In this document: piece by piece, positions 837-61,714 of the stretch
Position numbering within the stretch: position 1 is the stretch's first letter
How the letters are laid out: the number at the start of each line of letters is the position of its first letter
IMG/VR virus record: IMGVR_UViG_3300045988_145033
Span: 96,001-160,000 of that record
Length of the DNA: 64,000 bases
Source of the DNA: a virus
Direction: 5' to 3' (one strand)
Notes under the pieces: generated by a model
Told to the model about the DNA's origin: nothing
Seen by the model: only the letters and a program-made list of their open reading frames with translations
Databases searched by the model: none
Made by a program: the position numbers and the translations under genes

Positions 837-1140
837 CTAATACTAAGAAAAGAGGTGAAAACTCTTTCCTTTCTTTATTTTTTAATCCTGCACAATTAAA
901 TAGCTTTTGATAAGTACATATACGGTGTATAATGAGAAAGTGTCGTTTGGCAAATTCGGTCGAATTTTAGTAGTATTCTTTATCTGAGTATATTCTAAGA
1001 TATACCTTGAACGGCAGATACAATAAGAATATGAGAAAATTCTTTATGTGGTTTTTAAATTTTATAATACATATTTCTAATATCAATTTCGTTTATAAAC
1101 AAATGAACGATGGCTATTATTAGTATTAGTAAAAATATAT

Positions 1141-1312
1141 TAGGTGTCCTTTTTATTGAAGAGTTGAATTATTAAAAGATGAAACCCCGTTCACCGATTG
1201 AACGGTAACAAATGAATTTTGGGTGTCCCACCTCATTAACGAATAGAAAATTGTGAAATTAACTATTCAGGATAAAGATTTAAAATTATAAGTTTATGAA
1301 TTTTAGGTGTCC
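1141..1312 (-). repeat. three copies of a GGACACCYAA motif (minus orientation) at 1141-1149, 1221-1229 and 1304-1312, spaced 80 and 83 bp, with hairpin ccgttcaccgattgaacgg between them
   Basis: Exact 9-mers TAGGTGTCC, GGGTGTCCC and TAGGTGTCC in an ORF-free AT-rich spacer. Confidence 0.6.
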
Positions 1313-1723: not shown

Positions 1724-4270
1724 CTAAAACGGTTTAAGTGATTTTGGTTTTAATCTATTGACACGTCTTCCATTACCGAAGTAACTTCCGTTCACACCCA
1801 TAGTTATCTCCTCATCACCGCTTCCATTTTCCAAAGCATTATATATTTCATGAGCTTTACGCTCGAATTCCACCGCATCGTTTCCTCTCTTGTAAGTATC
1901 ATCTTCAAGAGTTCTAAATCCTAACATTTGTCCATTTTCTAAAGCATTTTGCTTTAGAAACTCTTGATACTTTTGCTCTTCAGTTAAACCAGCATAAGGG
2001 TCAACCTTAATATCAAATACATCTAGTTTATTGTATGATAAACTTTCATCATCCGGTACATTAGGATAATGAAGTCCGAATTTAATATCCATATCTATAT
2101 CTTTATATAGTACATATAAAGCCATAAGATATGCCATTAAAACGTCATCGTGATAACCCGGTAAGTGGTCTACTCTACCAGCTGATGATATAGTAAGTGA
2201 CATAAGCTCACGTGATATATCTTCTGATACGAAGTATGTCTTGTATCTATTAACTCTCATATTTAGAATTTCTCTTGTCATAGTTTCACGAACATCGTGT
2301 GTCATATCAAGTCCATATTTACCTTTAGATATTTTACCGTCATTTGAGTTAATATAGAAAGAACTATCGTCTTTTGCTGTTTGATAATAAATATTATCAA
2401 CTATATCAGAGCAATGTATAAGCTTATCTACAACTCCACGTCCTATACCATTTCTTTCTACTACAAATATACCATTAGGTACATATTGTCTGTAGAATTC
2501 AATTATAGTTTTAGCAAATATCTCAGTATCGTCTTCATTACTTCTAAAGGTAAAAAGTACCTTAGTGGTATCAGGGTCTATACCTACCATAGTAGAATAG
2601 TCGGAGTCTTTAGTTCCCCCACCACCTGCTATATCGACACCTATTACGACTTTCTTAAATCTTGCTAGTTCAAAGCCGTCATAAGTTGTAAATACATGTC
2701 TATTATTTAAGACAATAGTTTTCTTTCTTTGGTTTTTGGTATAAATATCAATAAGCTCCAAAGCTCTTCTTGAGAATGGTGAACGAATAAGAGTTCTTTT
2801 CCATTTAAGCATAACTTCCACATCAAAGACTTCTCTATCAAGTTTTCTTAATCTTTCTATCAACCATTCTTGAGTAAAACCAAGTTCATTATACATAAAT
2901 GAGCAAAATACTATATCTTTCTTACCATTCGCTCTCATATATGTCTTTAGTTCTTCTTTTGATAAATCAAACATTATAAGATTAAATCTTACACAGTTTT
3001 CAAATAAAAGCTTATATAACCATTCTCCTTCCTTAGTTGTAGCATCGGGTGGAGTAGAAGTCATAGTAATATTGTGTGGAGTTCCAACTTTTTCAGCGTT
3101 CGCTGCCGCTTCTTCGTGAGCAGGTTGTGCTGAACCATAAGCAAGATAATTATATTTAGACCAACCAATTTCGTCAAATCCTATTTTAACTAAACTCTTT
3201 CCCCGTCCAGTCTTCATAGCACCTTCTTTAGTTTGTCCTGTAGTTCCAGCGTATATTTTATTATTCCAAAGTTTATGATGAATTTCTATACCTTTTGCAT
3301 AATCATCACAGTCTACTATAGTTATATTACCAGTAGTATCTTCTTTTGCTTTAAATCTATAAAACTTAAGATAAGCTGGTAAGAACTGTAATATATTTAT
3401 AACGTCTTGTAAGTTATCCTTTGCTTTAGGTAAGTTATTTGCAAAAAGTGCCATATTAGCATTACGAGAAGCAAAGTTCCAACACCAACCAACGATAGCA
3501 TTATCAGTTCCTGATTTATACGTTTGTCTTGGTTGTTCAAGATAATACGTAATATCATTCGCTGTTAAATACATTGAAGTAAATGAACCTATATGAAATC
3601 TCATCTTAGTAGGTCCAGCTGGAGTTGATACTCTTGCTACTTCACGACAATAATAGAATATATTAGAACAAGTCTCAAGCTGTATTCTATCCATTTGGTC
3701 TTGTGTTAGATTTTTAGAATGTGGGTCTACACCATCAAGTGATGTATCATTTAAAAGAAGTGGTAACCACCATCTATGTACACCTAAGTTAAATAAAACC
3801 TTAGCAAAGTTAATTGCGTGTGGGTTTGTAGATTGGAATTGAACCTTTGGTATTTTAGGTGGTGGAAACTGTTTCATTAAATCTTCCATCATTCTATCCA
3901 TAGTAGATATATCTTTGGTGTCATTTATAACTCTACCAGTTTCTATGTCTATATTAGGGTCTATCTCTCCTTTTACATCATAGTCAACTTTAGGTATATA
4001 ACCCTCACTAGGTGCGTTAGGGTCATGTACCGTTTCATTAGGATTTATATAGTTAGAATAAATATGATTACCTTCGGAATCTACATCCACATGATTTTCT
4101 GAAACTATAGTTCCAGCAAGTTCTATAGATAATCTGTCAAATCCTATATCTCCTGTCATTTCATTATCTTTTTGAAATTGTCTTATATCACTTTGTACTT
4201 CTTTTTTGAAACTAGAATTTATCTCTTCTTCTTGTAAAAACTTATTAAATTTACTAAAACTATTATCCAC
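1724..4270 (-). CDS. terL: terminase large subunit (ATPase plus RNaseH-like nuclease), with a long N-terminal extension
   Basis: Nuclease motif I VVIGVDIAGGGGTKDSDYSTMVGID and C-terminal LPGYHDDVLMAYLMAL (HDD motif). Candidate Walker B IVDCDD and motif III AGTTGQT. Start is a GTG 2 nt after the upstream stop (translational coupling). Confidence 0.6.
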   Translation of the reverse strand: MDNSFSKFNKFLQEEEINSSFKKEVQSDIRQFQKDNEMTGDIGFDRLSIELAGTIVSENHVDVDSEGNHIYSNYINPNETVHDPNAPSEGYIPKVDYDVKGEIDPNIDIETGRVINDTKDISTMDRMMEDLMKQFPPPKIPKVQFQSTNPHAINFAKVLFNLGVHRWWLPLLLNDTSLDGVDPHSKNLTQDQMDRIQLETCSNIFYYCREVARVSTPAGPTKMRFHIGSFTSMYLTANDITYYLEQPRQTYKSGTDNAIVGWCWNFASRNANMALFANNLPKAKDNLQDVINILQFLPAYLKFYRFKAKEDTTGNITIVDCDDYAKGIEIHHKLWNNKIYAGTTGQTKEGAMKTGRGKSLVKIGFDEIGWSKYNYLAYGSAQPAHEEAAANAEKVGTPHNITMTSTPPDATTKEGEWLYKLLFENCVRFNLIMFDLSKEELKTYMRANGKKDIVFCSFMYNELGFTQEWLIERLRKLDREVFDVEVMLKWKRTLIRSPFSRRALELIDIYTKNQRKKTIVLNNRHVFTTYDGFELARFKKVVIGVDIAGGGGTKDSDYSTMVGIDPDTTKVLFTFRSNEDDTEIFAKTIIEFYRQYVPNGIFVVERNGIGRGVVDKLIHCSDIVDNIYYQTAKDDSSFYINSNDGKISKGKYGLDMTHDVRETMTREILNMRVNRYKTYFVSEDISRELMSLTISSAGRVDHLPGYHDDVLMAYLMALYVLYKDIDMDIKFGLHYPNVPDDESLSYNKLDVFDIKVDPYAGLTEEQKYQEFLKQNALENGQMLGFRTLEDDTYKRGNDAVEFERKAHEIYNALENGSGDEEITMGVNGSYFGNGRRVNRLKPKSLKPF

Positions 4271-6368: not shown

Positions 6369-6396
6369 GTCTACGTTTATTATATATAATTGAAAT
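6369..6396 (-). promoter_or_regulatory. early promoter, class A: TTTCAATTATATATAATAAACGTAGAC
   Basis: One of 11 copies of TATATWATAWAYGTAGAC, all on the minus strand. About 95 nt upstream of the ATG at 6292. Confidence 0.5.
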
Positions 6397-8896: not shown

Positions 8897-8908
8897 AACA
8901 GCAGTTTA
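8897..8908 (+). promoter_or_regulatory. late promoter AACAgcagttTAGATTAAAA
   Basis: Upstream of the putative capsid gene. Confidence 0.5.
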
Positions 8909-12886: not shown

Positions 12887-13702
12887 ATGAACCCTAATAG
12901 ACTTATAAAAGATGTAAAGGAAAAATTAGGAATAGGAACTTTTATAGAAACTAAATATACAGATTATGATTTATATGATAGGATATTATCATCTGCAAGA
13001 ATGTGGTTCTCAAGAATATACGCTTATGAAATATTTATACCGTCTATGAAATTTGATAATTCTTTAAGATATAATGGTAGAGTGTATTCATATAAGATAC
13101 CAGAATATATCACAAAAGAGCTAGCTTATGAAAAAACTGGAGTTATAGATGTAAGACATTTGCGTCAAGCATTTTCAACTGTAGAAGATACAGGTATGAT
13201 GTATCTTCCTACAGCAGATACTATGTATCCGCCACCAGCTGACGGTGTAGGTTCTACCTATATGGGAGCTATGAGTGCAACTCCGTCATACTATATGCAA
13301 GGACTTGCTCCATATATAGGAATGGCTCAAACTCAAGCATCTTATGAAATGTATAGAAAACCTATAAAGGCTAAGTTCCGTTCTCCTAATATAATAGAAT
13401 TCGATTTAAGAGGAATGTCACCTGTTGGAACTAATTGGGAGCTACGTTTAAAAGTAGGACACCCTATGAGTTTATTTAGTGTAGATGAGCCACACTATCT
13501 TATATTTCAAAACTTAGCTGTATTTGATATACAGGAGTTCTTATGGAATAGTGAACTTAAAGGACTTGATGGACTTACTAACGGTTATGATAATATATCT
13601 TTAAAGATAGATGATTGGGCTAATGCCTCTGAGCGTAGAGCTGAGTATATAGAAAAGCTTGAAGCTGATGTAGTTCTAATGGAAGGAATTACGACTTATT
13701 AA
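12887..13702 (+). CDS. hypothetical structural protein, 271 aa
   Basis: RBS AAGGAG. Operon partner of 12081..12872. Confidence 0.45.
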   Translation: MNPNRLIKDVKEKLGIGTFIETKYTDYDLYDRILSSARMWFSRIYAYEIFIPSMKFDNSLRYNGRVYSYKIPEYITKELAYEKTGVIDVRHLRQAFSTVEDTGMMYLPTADTMYPPPADGVGSTYMGAMSATPSYYMQGLAPYIGMAQTQASYEMYRKPIKAKFRSPNIIEFDLRGMSPVGTNWELRLKVGHPMSLFSVDEPHYLIFQNLAVFDIQEFLWNSELKGLDGLTNGYDNISLKIDDWANASERRAEYIEKLEADVVLMEGITTY

Positions 13703-14000: not shown

Positions 14001-15039
14001 CTGTCATTTCTCTTAGCTCTTTATAAAGCTTTTCATTAAATAGCATTTCTTCTCTATCAAGTTCCATAACATAGCAAGTTATCTCAGTTCTTTCAAGAGT
14101 ACGAGATGTCCAGAATTCTACATATCCACTATTACGTGGGTAGAATTCTTTTGGAACATTTACCATATCTATAAAGTAGACTCTCTTATTTGCTATTTTA
14201 AGAGTCTTATACTTTTCAGGTATTTCATTCCAATCATCAGAAGGAAGCTCAAGAACTTGTACTCCAGAAAGTCCAACTTGAGTTGCAAACTCAGTATTAA
14301 TATGATTACCCTTATGATACGCTAAGATAAATGGTGTAGTTGTATCTACAGTATTTTTCTTAGAAGACGCATAATAGTTATTTAATTGGTCTTCCGTCAT
14401 ATACTTAGATGCTACTTTAAATCCGAATTCGTATATAAGATAACCTATACAAGCATCAGCTATCTTATTATCGTTATCGAATTTAATATGCTTTAAAACG
14501 TTAGATGAGTAATTACCCACCTTTAAAAGTTTCCAAAGCATAGGAAGATTTAGGAAGTTTGCTGAAATTTCGGGAATTACACCTTTATCAAGCTTGTACA
14601 TTATATCATCATAAGGTGCAAGTCCTAACGCATATACCACATTTCTACAGTGATATATACGGATTTTCTTTTCAGAAGCTTCTACAATATCGGTAAATCT
14701 TGTGTGAGCATCATTATCCCACTCACCACTATCGTAGAAATCTATCATCTCAAATTCAGCCGTTTGAGACGTCTTATCAAACTCGCCAGTGTATCTTAGA
14801 AGTTTGTGAGATATATTTCCACCACTTCTATGAGATACGCATACAACATCACCTTTATTAAGTATAAATAAACCGTGATTGTCATTTGATAAAGTTCCAC
14901 CGGTACGGATAAAAATACAATCTTTCTTATGACCATATTTATCTCCGATAAGTTCAGTATGTCCTGAGTTAGTCATACCTCCCCCTTTTTCCCAGAATGC
15001 TGGGTAACCCTTTTTAGTAAATGCTATTTGTAATTTCAT
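13996..15039 (-). CDS. hypothetical early protein, 347 aa
   Basis: Stand-alone cassette with a TA-rich early promoter variant upstream and a terminator downstream. RBS AAGGAGG. Confidence 0.5.
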   Translation of the reverse strand: MKLQIAFTKKGYPAFWEKGGGMTNSGHTELIGDKYGHKKDCIFIRTGGTLSNDNHGLFILNKGDVVCVSHRSGGNISHKLLRYTGEFDKTSQTAEFEMIDFYDSGEWDNDAHTRFTDIVEASEKKIRIYHCRNVVYALGLAPYDDIMYKLDKGVIPEISANFLNLPMLWKLLKVGNYSSNVLKHIKFDNDNKIADACIGYLIYEFGFKVASKYMTEDQLNNYYASSKKNTVDTTTPFILAYHKGNHINTEFATQVGLSGVQVLELPSDDWNEIPEKYKTLKIANKRVYFIDMVNVPKEFYPRNSGYVEFWTSRTLERTEITCYVMELDREEMLFNEKLYKELREMTE

Positions 15040-59383: not shown

Positions 59384-59610
59384 GTTTTTTACATAATGTC
59401 GTTATCATCTTAGAAGGTAAGTATTCATATGAAACTCTAGCAGAAATGCCTATGAGTGAAATAGAAGCTCTACTTCAACATAATCAAGAATTTATAAGGA
59501 TTAGAGATGAGATGATGGAGAAACAAAGACAGAAAGCAGAGCAAGAATCAAGAAACGGAAATAAAAAAGGTAGAACTACTAAAGAACCAATATATTATTA
59601 AAATAAAAAT

Positions 59611-59636
59611 ATATGTGTGGGATATCCCACACATAT
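59611..59636. terminator. perfect 26-nt palindrome atatgtgtgggatatcccacacatat
   Basis: Follows the baseplate gene after an A-run. Bidirectional hairpin. Confidence 0.45.
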
Positions 59637-59728
59637 ATTTAGAAATACAAAATATTTCGGAGATAACTTTTATGAGAAGACAATATAAAGAATATTATCG
59701 ACTTACAAAAAGTTATTTAAGAAGATGT

Positions 59729-60315
59729 GGGACACCCAATGAATATTGATATTGACATTTCAACTCAAAGAAGTGTTCCTAATATTGTAATAAAAGATTT
59801 AGGTAGGCTTTCGCCTACCAATGTCATACATTATTAAATAACTTGTATAAAAGGACACCTAAATAATCTACATAAATTTAAGTACGAGTGATATAATATT
59901 CAAACCGAAAAGGATGAAATTATTTCAAATACGTGTTGTGCATATTTTAAGGTGGGCATATGCCCACCCGAGATGTGTCTTGTTAGTTGAATTTGAACCA
60001 AATAGTTCAAGCTCTCTTCACAAGTGGTAGAATAGGACACCTAAGAGAACCTTGATAAAATCATTATCATGGCTATTAATAGCCATATAAATGTTAAATT
60101 GAGGGGTGGAGCTCAAAGCTCCACACAATAGGACACCTAAGTCATTAATTAAATTTTATTAAGTTTTCTTCATGGGGTATCATACTTTGATATCCAAAAA
60201 AGTAATTAAGAATCTTCTCACTTAAAGAGGATTCTGATTCTTAGAAGAGAAAGTAAAGAGAACTACCTCTATCGTAATTCTCTTTCCTTGTCTAAATGAA
60301 TAAAGTGGGACACCC
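59729..60315 (+). repeat. five copies of a GGACACCYAA motif (plus orientation) at 59729, 59852, 60034, 60130 and 60307, each preceded by a short perfect hairpin
   Basis: Copies are GGGACACCCAA twice and AGGACACCTAA three times. Adjacent hairpins: ggtaggctttcgcctacc, ggtgggcatatgcccacc, gtggagctcaaagctccac. Confidence 0.6.
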
Positions 60316-60405
60316 AAGGTATTATATGATTTCTACATGAGTAATAAGATAACAATTTTTCCAAATGTTTATGCTATCATTTATCTTGTTAGTCAATTTT
60401 AAAAA

Positions 60406-61104
60406 TTACATAGTAACCATACATAGTCCATCTGAGCTATCAAGAGATACAATCTTACCGAATATCTCTTTTATCTCTTTATCATAATCTTCTACAGATT
60501 TATGCTTTTCGTATGTATTTATTATATTATCTAAATAATGAACTATTTGAGCTATTCTTTTAACCCAAGTTTCATCTTTAGCACTTTCTATGTGATGGTC
60601 AGGTTTACCGTCTTTCATTACTATCTTATATATAAGCTCATCAAATACAAAAGTATATACTTTAGCATTATTACCTTCAGGGTGTATAGATAAGCTATCA
60701 AGAACCATAACACTATCAGTTATTGCTTGTTCATTCTCTCTTTTACTCATATCAGTAATAAGTACATTCACATCAAATAACTCATATCCATTATTTCTCA
60801 AATCATTATGAGCTTTATATCTTTCAAGTATAGTCTTATTAGCATCCCAAGTAATATCAGCTTTTTCTATATTATGATTACCTATTACTATTATCTCATT
60901 CTCAGTTCTTATTCTAATAGTAATATCATTATTAAAAGGATGTCCGTTATATATCCCTATTTCAGTTTCTACACTCTTACCTTGCTTTCTATAATGTGAT
61001 GATACACCTTCTACTATATTTGATATAAATATACCTTTATCCTCTTTACTTAAATACTTAGTAGTACCTATTATATCAATATTTAAAACTACCTTACATT
61101 TCAT
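60406..61104 (-). CDS. hypothetical protein, 232 aa
   Basis: RBS AAAGGAGG. Late element AACAttttcgTA upstream. Confidence 0.45.
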   Translation of the reverse strand: MKCKVVLNIDIIGTTKYLSKEDKGIFISNIVEGVSSHYRKQGKSVETEIGIYNGHPFNNDITIRIRTENEIIVIGNHNIEKADITWDANKTILERYKAHNDLRNNGYELFDVNVLITDMSKRENEQAITDSVMVLDSLSIHPEGNNAKVYTFVFDELIYKIVMKDGKPDHHIESAKDETWVKRIAQIVHYLDNIINTYEKHKSVEDYDKEIKEIFGKIVSLDSSDGLCMVTM

Positions 61105-61132
61105 ATTAATTATCCTCCTTTAAACTTAATTA

Positions 61133-61144
61133 TACGAAAATGTT
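61133..61144 (-). promoter_or_regulatory. late promoter AACAttttcgTA
   Basis: Minus strand, upstream of 60406..61104. Confidence 0.4.
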
Positions 61145-61204
61145 CATAAACTCTCAAGTTACAATACTTTTTATTTTTATTAAAAAACTTTTTTCAAAAA
61201 AGTG

Positions 61205-61395
61205 GAAACACTGTTGTGTAAAAAACAACCTTGACGTTGGTTGTTGTCCGAGCAGAGCGAGGAGCTGAAGCGTGAGCGGAACCCCAAACCATCCCGACCG
61301 GTGCCCCTAAGGCAAGGAGTGGAGGGTGGTTAGGGGTTGCCGAGGAACGAGCAAGAACTAATGGCAACGGTGGGAATATCGACCAAGGCAAAAGA
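61205..61395 (-). ncRNA. GC-rich (>55% GC) structured element, candidate small non-coding RNA with its own terminator; identity unknown
   Basis: Sharp GC island in 30% GC DNA. The only ORF here (65 aa) is Pro/Ala-rich, unlike every other protein. Minus-strand hairpin ACAACC-N8-GGTTGT plus T5 lies at 61218-61244. Confidence 0.35.
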
Positions 61396-61500
61396 ATAAA
61401 TAAAAATATAATATAAATGTTACTAAATATACAGAAATAGTAATCCTAAATGGATTATTAATTAATATAAAAAATTATAAACAACATATTGCAGTAGCAA

Positions 61501-61540
61501 AAAAGAAACGGCTTCGCCTACTCCGCCTGCGGCGAGCCAT
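61501..61540 (-). terminator. GC-rich hairpin plus U-run (minus strand)
   Basis: Revcomp ggctcgccgcaggcggagtaggcgaagcc then GTTTCTTTTTT. Confidence 0.4.
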
Positions 61541-61686
61541 ACGATACTGGTTACAGTAGTAGTAATACTATATGTAAATACTTATATAAACAAAATAAAT
61601 GATATTATTTGAGATAAGTATGTCAAAAATGTAATAGTAATATTTCGTTTTTAATTCAGCCTTATTTAGAATTTTTCTTCTAAAAA

Positions 61687-61714
61687 TATATACTCCCGAT
61701 ATGGGAGTATATAT
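61687..61714. terminator. palindromic terminator (atatactccc-gatat-gggagtatat)
   Basis: Same family. Confidence 0.5.

Follow-up and report, generated by a model that had tools for sequence, protein, structure and literature searches.

The early promoters of phage N4, which are used by its virion RNA polymerase (RNAP), consist of a GC-rich heptamer around a 3-nt loop with inverted-repeat flanks in which the non-conserved bases need only pair (PMC4496689). In the AR9/phiKZ style of host-independent transcription, genes are read by multisubunit phage RNAPs, and the non-virion RNAP of the AR9 type, which reads the template strand, is active on single-stranded DNA (ssDNA) and has a -10-like element that contains ACA (PMC7598289). 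Intergenic small RNAs (sRNAs) have been reported for the jumbo phage 201phi2-1 by Oxford Nanopore Technologies (ONT)-cappable-seq (PMC11512511). The present analysis concerns a short repeated motif, GGACACCYAA, in a 64,000-nucleotide stretch of viral DNA (positions 96,001 to 160,000 of IMG/VR record IMGVR_UViG_3300045988_145033), which is referred to throughout as the window and numbered from its first base. The motif is the core of a lineage-specific family of hairpins that punctuates four non-coding loci with about 12 copies per genome, and comparison of related sequences indicates a conserved mini-hairpin formed in single-stranded RNA or DNA, not a phased duplex site.

A first-pass annotation of the window had judged the repetition of GGACACCYAA to be non-random, and the counts agree: eight exact matches were found where 0.06 would be expected by chance, and none of 100 dinucleotide-preserving shuffles of the window reached eight copies. 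Three matches lie on the minus strand (at 1140, 1219 and 1303; array I) and five on the plus strand (starting at 59730, 59853, 60035, 60131 and 60308; array II, spanning 59730-60317), the two arrays having opposite orientation, as had been noted. Read on the plus strand, array I appears as TAGGTGTCC at 1141-1149 and 1304-1312 and as GGGTGTCCC at 1221-1229. The bare 7-mer GGACACC has one further copy in the window, at 13457, within an open reading frame (ORF) and lacking both the YAA tail and a pairing flank. Array I sits downstream of the large-terminase ORF 1724-4270(-), named from the annotation of phages JD-Fnp1 and JD-Fnp4, in a spacer rightly described as free of ORFs; no ORF of 40 amino acids (aa) or more was found in 837-1437, nor does one of that length lie downstream of the motif in the islands, as the non-coding regions that hold the motif are called here.

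The window is 92-93% identical to the Fusobacterium nucleatum phages JD-Fnp1, JD-Fnp4, JD-Fnp6 and JD-Fnp7 (175-180 kb), all of which carry several multisubunit RNAP-like genes. The genome-wide scan that the first-pass annotation had proposed was made on the complete genome of JD-Fnp4, where GGACACC occurs 13 times: once as a chance match in coding sequence and 12 times in intergenic DNA. Rather than being scattered uniformly through coding DNA, all 12 intergenic copies mark four non-coding loci, namely 3.4 kb (one copy), 14.4-14.9 kb (array II, four exact copies), 75.1-75.3 kb (array I, downstream of the terminase, three copies) and a fourth locus at 127.3-127.7 kb (four copies). The JD-Fnp4 orthologue of array II copy 1 reads GAGACACC and was therefore missed by the exact count. 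The three multi-copy loci rank among the largest non-coding gaps of the genome. Orientation is shared within each locus and alternates as +,-,+,- around the genome; three of the four loci sit between convergent operons, and ten other convergent junctions are without the motif. Searches of IMG/VR, Joint Genome Institute (JGI) metagenomes and GTDB genomes (for the last, among the matches listed) recovered the hairpin family only in two related clades of Fusobacterium phages, the second consisting of uncultured relatives with terminases 68-69% identical and contigs of 174-176 kb. A metagenome scan combined with terminase alignment returned the same two clades and no others.

With two 5' bases added, every copy in the window becomes an inverted repeat of the form T-R-G-G[ACA]C-C-Y-A, in which the R and Y of the stem covary, AGG..CCT alternating with GGG..CCC. 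In array I, on the minus strand, copy 1 (1304-1314) reads TAGG-ACA-CCTA followed by A, copy 2 (1220-1230) reads TGGG-ACA-CCCA and copy 3 (1141-1151), with 3 bp, reads (A)AGG-ACA-CCT(A). In array II, on the plus strand, TGGG-ACA-CCCA is found in copy 1 (59728-59738) and copy 5 (60306-60316), (A)AGG-ACA-CCT(A) in copy 2 (59851-59861) and TAGG-ACA-CCTA in copy 3 (60033-60043) and copy 4 (60129-60139). Stems measure 3-5 bp across the family, the loop is A-C-A/G (or Y-G-T on the opposite strand) and the flanks are A-rich.

Alignments of the islands across relatives revealed that the copies keep their positions in non-coding DNA whose identity is otherwise only about 82%, and that orthologous copies carry compensatory substitutions. 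Array I copy 1, TAGG/CCTA in the window, is CGGG-ACA-CCCG in JD-Fnp1, a difference of two compensatory pair changes, and copy 3, AGG/CCT in the window, shows a compensatory change to GGG-ACA-CCC in JD-Fnp4, JD-Fnp6 and JD-Fnp7. Array II copy 1, TGGG/CCCA in the window, is TAGG-ACG-CCTA in JD-Fnp1, with single-step intermediates in JD-Fnp4 and one IMG/VR relative; in copy 2 the outer pair is restored as CAGG-ACA-CCTG in JD-Fnp4, JD-Fnp6 and IMG8150. The loop varies at its third base, where A is replaced by G in at least nine copies, as in the ACG loop of array I copy 2 in JD-Fnp6 and JD-Fnp7. The second clade has no GGACACC at all, yet at each of the three loci examined it carries a hairpin or hairpins in which other stems support the same G-closed A-C-R loop: TCCG-ACA-CGGA, TGCG-ACA-CGCA and GTACG-ACA-CGTAC downstream of the terminase; TACG-ACA-CGTA, GCG-ACA-CGC, GTGAG-ACA-CTCAC and AAG-ACA-CTT at the position of array II; and TGCG-ACA-CGCA at the single-copy position.

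These sites were assembled into a covariation set of 61 distinct orthologous and paralogous 17-mers from the two clades, chosen by alignment position and not by pairing. The closing pair is G:C in 61 of 61 and the G-AC-R-C apex is equally invariant. Pair 2 is GC in 44 instances, CG in 12, AU in three, GU in one and another combination in one; pair 3 is GC in 30, AU in 29, CG in one and otherwise in one; pair 4 is formed in 39. The covariation score was 0.392, compared with 0.151 in shuffles (none of 500 reached 0.392) and with at most 0.156 when the partner column was slid. As read from these alignments, the clade-wide replacement of stems is beyond what relatedness of the sequences could explain. 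Hairpins with a stem of at least 4 bp on a G-ACA-C apex are, in the window, six of the eight motif copies and no others, and in JD-Fnp4 they number 26 against 14 in shuffles, an excess equal to the motif family. Conservation extends over some 17 nt, R-N-A-R-[T-R-S-G-A-C-R-C-S-Y-A]-M-R, with nothing conserved further out. The motif combines the covarying stem, conserved loop and conserved flanking bases of a boxB-like protein-binding RNA hairpin, in functional analogy only, and it is very probably a protein recognition element.

That part of the first-pass proposal, binding of a protein, accordingly stands as a very probable one; its other part, cooperative binding to duplex DNA in helical phase, does not fit the covarying arms and the variable spacing. 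The periodicity of 80-83 bp on which it had been based is correct for array I in the window (79 and 84 bp) and is not conserved, the corresponding distances being 72-88 bp in close relatives, 95-127 bp in the second clade and 96-182 bp in array II. Because spacing varies from 72 to 182 bp overall, helical phasing is not a property of the motif system. A double-stranded array of cooperative sites, for a partition, packaging, initiator or transcription factor, would account for copies that are clustered and co-oriented in ORF-free DNA, with array I adjoining the terminase operon; however, the independent half-site recognition of a dimer predicts neither the base-pair covariation nor the replacement of arms in the second clade, the spacing is not conserved, and a single pac or par site would not be expected at four separate loci. 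We regard such an array as very improbable, and a packaging role in particular is unlikely to explain four separate loci. Iteron, parS and operator arrays do not match, since arm sequences differ among copies and clades with complementarity kept and spacing is irregular. It is because the arms covary, because stems are replaced between clades with pairing kept and because spacing is unconserved that the motif is read as a hairpin of single-stranded nucleic acid.

The same comparisons bear on the notion that the motif has no dedicated function, being a short quasi-palindrome that multiplied as non-coding modules were duplicated and whose symmetry template-switch correction maintains. Its very short arms would suit this explanation, as would the repetition in the islands of a second module, the terminator hairpin GGTAGGC-GAAA/TTTC-GCCTACC. 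Against it, copies remain in position while their flanks diverge to about 82% identity, the clade whose terminase is only 69% identical still has the element at the three loci examined, its apex is invariant in 61 of 61 instances, and the flanks of different copies are unrelated, so that recent duplication does not explain them. An origin of this kind is extremely improbable.

Evidence on which strand might be transcribed came from the promoters of the phage, whose classes were found by k-mer enrichment upstream of JD-Fnp4 genes. The late class, AACA-N6-T[A/G] and typically AAAACA[CG]CnnTTTAG, is the AR9 late consensus. It has 32 forward and 15 reverse matches in the gene-upstream regions of JD-Fnp4, and 24 of the 32 forward matches place the transcription start site 25-47 nt from the ATG. 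AR9-like template-strand promoter recognition in a Fusobacterium phage is suggested by these sequences. Matches to the late consensus were observed in the window at 8897(+), 21733(-), 21759(+), 26796(-) and 51105(-). A second, AT-rich motif of about 30 nt, TTTTTTTTCAATTATATATAATAAATGTAGA, has eight copies in JD-Fnp4, usually about 85 nt upstream of genes and in one case only 2 nt; it probably represents the early (virion RNAP) promoter class, resembling early promoters of jumbo phages. In the window it occurs at 6386(-), 15527(-), 18328(-) and 49076(-), followed by a conserved leader hairpin, cttaagaaggcttaag, and one copy precedes the terminase operon.

Within the islands, ten matches to the strict late pattern fall on the strand complementary to the GGACACC reading (the anti-motif strand) and a single one on the GGACACC strand, with 3.8 expected per strand; that single match is the promoter of a real gene. 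Matches were scored with a position weight matrix (PWM) trained on gene-upstream sites only. The strongest, GGAACACTTCTTTGAG at 59766-59777 on the minus strand, precedes array II copy 1 on the anti-motif strand and scores 18.1 in the window and 14.7 in JD-Fnp4; its AACA-N6-TG is kept in six of six aligned genomes. From it, a minus-strand transcript of about 160 nt would run through copy 1 and end at the terminator 59607-59640. Another conserved anti-motif match, AACACGTATTTG at 59926-59937 on the minus strand (13.0 in the window, 9.8 in JD-Fnp4), has array II copy 2 downstream of it, as well as the minus-strand terminator 59802-59819 with its GAAA loop and T-run, and a third, at the single site of the second clade, scores 11.0. 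Beyond the hairpin of each of these three PWM-supported matches stands a terminator on the same strand.

A highly conserved block of about 90 nt (59640-59730) was observed upstream of array II copy 1. It more likely belongs to the predicted minus-strand RNA of about 160 nt than to a 25-aa ORF that it contains; that ORF, which has a ribosome-binding site and overlaps copy 1, was discounted, its start codon being destroyed in a close relative.

The anti-motif strand is also the strand of a predicted structured small RNA, designated RNA-X (890-1065, plus strand), which adjoins array I, is common to both clades and runs convergent with the GGACACC reading of that array. The RNA-X block is more conserved than array I itself. 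It is preceded by a conserved late-promoter-like sequence, (C/T)ACA-ATTAAA-TA, at 892-902. Its 5' hairpin, of 12 bp, contains many G.U pairs, and its 3' end is formed by an AT-rich, terminator-like hairpin with a U-run. By RNAalifold, its plus strand folds at -21.3 kcal/mol against -5.7 for the minus strand, and the 28 predicted pairs include many changes from G.U to A.U or G.C and four compensatory ones. No Rfam match was found for it.

Two further copies are placed as if in the tail of a gene. In both clades, a convergent 232-aa gene has array II copy 5 between its stop codon (at 60406 in the window) and its terminator (60255-60285), and the hairpin of the single-copy locus follows the stop codon of a gene for a virion-RNAP subunit and precedes a bidirectional terminator. 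At array I, a bidirectional intrinsic terminator (1405-1439, both strands), conserved among relatives, closes the terminase operon and bounds the island. The islands are probably transcribed on both strands.

The reading that we favour, at a probability of roughly 0.4, is that about 12 small non-coding transcripts and 3' tails have the hairpin in common as a module for recognition by a protein, probably on the anti-motif strand. Each copy would belong to a single small non-coding transcript or to the 3' untranslated tail of a convergent gene and would act as a common handle for one putative RNA-binding or RNA-processing protein. The transcripts would on balance run opposite to the GGACACC reading (plus strand in array I), giving the RNA motif UURGG-UGU-CCYA. 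This strand is preferred because late-promoter matches, terminators and RNA-X lie mostly on it.

Several observations weigh against a transcript handle of this kind. Array I has no late promoter of the strict pattern, and the candidates at the fourth locus score poorly by PWM. Intrinsic terminators with T-runs also exist in the GGACACC sense, at 1187-1205 and, in the fourth locus, at JD-Fnp4 127448-127469. The former is the perfect 7-bp hairpin that the first-pass annotation had correctly placed between two motif copies: ccgttcaccgattgaacgg, on the minus strand between copies 2 and 3, is GC-rich and terminator-like, with seven pairs, a 5-nt loop and the tail GGTTTCATCTTTT, and its stem is conserved in JD-Fnp4 with a compensatory change (tcgttc..gaacga). 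RNAalifold favours neither strand for the array II units, and wobble-type single-step intermediates are equally frequent for both strands. No candidate binding protein emerged, the flanking ORFs having no match in Pfam, PHROG or NCBIfam. The hairpin, taken in isolation, is weak (-1.6 to -4.2 kcal/mol as RNA, -0.8 to -3.2 as DNA); being marginal alone, it therefore implies a partner protein. Finally, the collections searched hold only two related clades, and many of the covariation counts are not independent events.

The main rival starts from the anatomy of the motif, which recalls that of N4 promoters (PMC4496689): the hairpins could instead be N4-style promoters for a non-canonical multisubunit phage RNAP, recognized as extruded or ssDNA hairpins and driving short non-coding RNAs in the GGACACC sense. 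We consider this possible though doubtful. The phage uses the AR9-type late consensus, and an AR9-type RNAP accepts ssDNA (PMC7598289); the element is self-contained, with about 17 nt conserved; every locus, in the GGACACC sense, begins after the terminator of the upstream co-oriented operon; many copies follow a GC-rich hairpin by 12-95 nt; and in two units an intrinsic terminator in the sense orientation follows, 25 nt downstream in one and about 85 nt in the other. On the other hand, the motif has GACA rather than AACA and is without the T[A/G] at which late-class transcripts start, conservation beyond +9 includes no purine-rich start position, the stems have 3-5 bp where those of N4 have 5-7, and the loop is not of the stable GNA type. 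Three of the four loci have no protein-coding gene downstream, and the late-promoter matches and RNA-X point the opposite way. As for a polymerase, one protein was examined, the only giant one of the phage, of virion type and 2978 aa, in which a C39 peptidase domain was the only domain found; it gave no match in the PDB, and no N4-like single-subunit RNAP was detected in it. A more specific proposal, a new promoter class in which the ssDNA hairpin is read by an AR9/phiKZ-type multisubunit RNAP or specificity subunit and drives dedicated non-coding RNA genes, is unlikely.

Assignment of the motif to one of the recognized promoter classes was also considered. It was rejected as a disguised late promoter, having GACA and not AACA, no conserved T(-1)/R(+1) and no downstream gene, and membership of the early-type AT-rich class was not supported. 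A sigma-70 promoter scan gave matches no more frequent than in shuffles, and the best-looking hexamers (907-935) lie inside the 5' hairpin of RNA-X.

The invariant G-A-C of the motif is 5'-GTC-3' on the opposite strand, within GYGTC, and GYGTC resembles T7-type primase recognition sites such as GTGTC. The hairpins might be ssDNA elements of replication or topology, formed where DNA is unwound: either a priming or helicase-loading signal of an origin-like kind or a topoisomerase target at which supercoiling between convergent operons is relieved. The shared orientation of the copies within a locus, the position of three of the four loci between convergent operons, the wobble intermediates without strand bias and a gene content that includes a primase, gyrase-like subunits and a topoisomerase II are all compatible with such a role. 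It is nevertheless distinctly unlikely: the primase could not be placed in a family, GC skew tracks the coding strand only and gives no origin signal, the ten other convergent junctions are without the motif, the +,-,+,- alternation would require two origins and two termini, and nothing links the hairpins to primase recognition in this phage.

Position relative to operons raises the further prospect of a factor-dependent terminator or insulator, that is, of stop or pause signals for a phage RNAP that block read-through into convergent genes. In the GGACACC sense, each of the four loci follows a co-oriented operon, three of them face a convergent gene, and copies are stacked three to five deep. 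Canonical intrinsic terminators, however, already stand upstream of each array; most operon ends, and the ten other convergent junctions, do without the motif; no U-run follows the hairpin; and the DNA between copies is conserved and structured, which an insulator would not need. Such a function is quite improbable. As an intrinsic terminator, for which a GC-rich stem of at least 5 bp and a U/T-run directly after it are expected, the motif was rejected, its stem having 3-5 bp and no T-run and none of its copies being called in a terminator scan.

Known families likewise failed to account for the islands. A scan for transfer RNA (tRNA) and transfer-messenger RNA found none, no Rfam family matched at its gathering score in the window and, for either island, nothing relevant appeared at E<=1. 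The islands are thus not explained by a conserved ORF, a tRNA or an Rfam family. CsrA-type GGA sites were rejected, the second clade being without GGA. A CRISPR repeat or RNA anti-CRISPR mimic, with 23-40 identical nt and regular spacers, does not correspond to a motif of about 17 conserved nt spaced at 72-182 bp, and a protein annotated as 'Cas system-associated protein' is a helicase and not a Cas6-like RNase. ToxI-like repeats, attC and Ter sites were rejected on anatomy. A pattern scan of IMG/VR for two spaced copies returned 111 loci; apart from four close relatives, these were unrelated repeats, either coding ones with a period of 18 nt (CCGGACACCCAA) or others. The CCGGACACCCAA arrays, probably coding tandem repeats, occur in many unrelated viral contigs of 35-67% GC and confound searches for the motif. 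The corresponding scan of bacterial genomes gave heterogeneous, unrelated matches, with no Fusobacterium-like locus among the matches listed.

Other features of the islands were recorded in the course of the analysis. Array II copy 3 opens a 96-nt unit (60035-60130, plus strand) that extends to copy 4, is almost invariant among six genomes and holds three consecutive hairpins: TGATAA..TTATCA, ATGGCTATT/AATAGCCAT and GTGGAGC-loop-GCTCCAC. The loop of the third of these is C(UUCG)G on the minus strand in relatives. The terminator hairpin GGTAGGC-(GAAA/TTTC)-GCCTACC is a repeated module, present at 59802-59819 in the window and at 14915, 106516, 127450 and 127761 in JD-Fnp4; it is used in both orientations, and three of the four JD-Fnp4 copies lie inside hairpin islands. 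Between the 232-aa ORF and a 174-aa ORF, about 610 bp (61105-61714) contain no long ORF and no copy of the hairpin motif and include the late-type promoter of the 232-aa gene. Finally, AATTTTAAGGAGGAA occurs about 16 times in JD-Fnp4; the conservation that it shows around the ribosome-binding site is of unusual length, and it may act in regulation and translation initiation together.

Nearly all large non-coding DNA of the phage is marked by the hairpin family, which is conserved in structure in two clades and corresponds to no described RNA family. Phages of F. nucleatum are candidates for therapy, and this group uses host-independent transcription of the AR9/phiKZ style. To our knowledge, F. 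nucleatum lacks the classical sRNA chaperones. If the hairpin is indeed an RNA handle, about a dozen phage small RNAs would be defined and a cognate binding or processing protein predicted. If it is a hairpin promoter, N4-type promoter logic would be extended to multisubunit viral polymerases, this being the first such promoter beyond the N4-like single-subunit enzymes, and a phage would show a 'Pol III-like' division of labour. In either event, hairpins of 11 nt with natural compensatory variants are precise and testable targets for transcript mapping and binding.

Among known systems, the early promoters of the N4 virion RNAP are like the motif in their GC-rich heptamer, 3-nt loop, flanks conserved in pairing and few, clustered, short copies (PMC4496689). 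They have, however, stems of 5-7 bp and a G-N-A-type loop and precede early protein-coding genes, which a giant single-subunit RNAP transcribes, whereas the motif has stems of 3-5 bp, an A-C-R loop and no downstream ORFs in a phage with multisubunit RNAPs. With the promoters of AR9 and phiKZ, the apex of the hairpin shares ACA(C); unlike these classes, the motif is an inverted repeat. The boxB element of lambdoid nut sites offers a parallel in its short covarying stem, conserved loop and single-stranded flank and presumed dedicated protein, but boxB has a 5-nt GNRA-like loop and occurs once in each early operon, beside boxA and after a promoter; the motif has a triloop, stands in arrays of three to five in non-coding DNA and has no known N-like protein. 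Repetitive extragenic palindromic (REP) sequences and bacterial interspersed mosaic elements are, like the motif, extragenic and palindromic, often between convergent genes, and for both a connection with gyrase and with the stability of RNA is possible. REPs have a length of about 35 nt, number in the hundreds, often alternate in orientation and have a REP-associated tyrosine transposase (RAYT), in contrast to the 11-13 nt, 12 copies and direct orientation within a locus seen here. Clusters of sibling sRNAs such as Listeria LhrC1-5 are like the islands in consisting of tandem short units with promoter- and terminator-like signals of their own and a shared short module; the shared part of sibling sRNAs is a single-stranded seed and they are homologous along their length, whereas the units of the islands are unrelated outside the covarying hairpin. 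The motif, in sum, resembles N4 promoters and boxB in design and sibling-sRNA clusters in layout, and departs from each of them in its testable defining traits.

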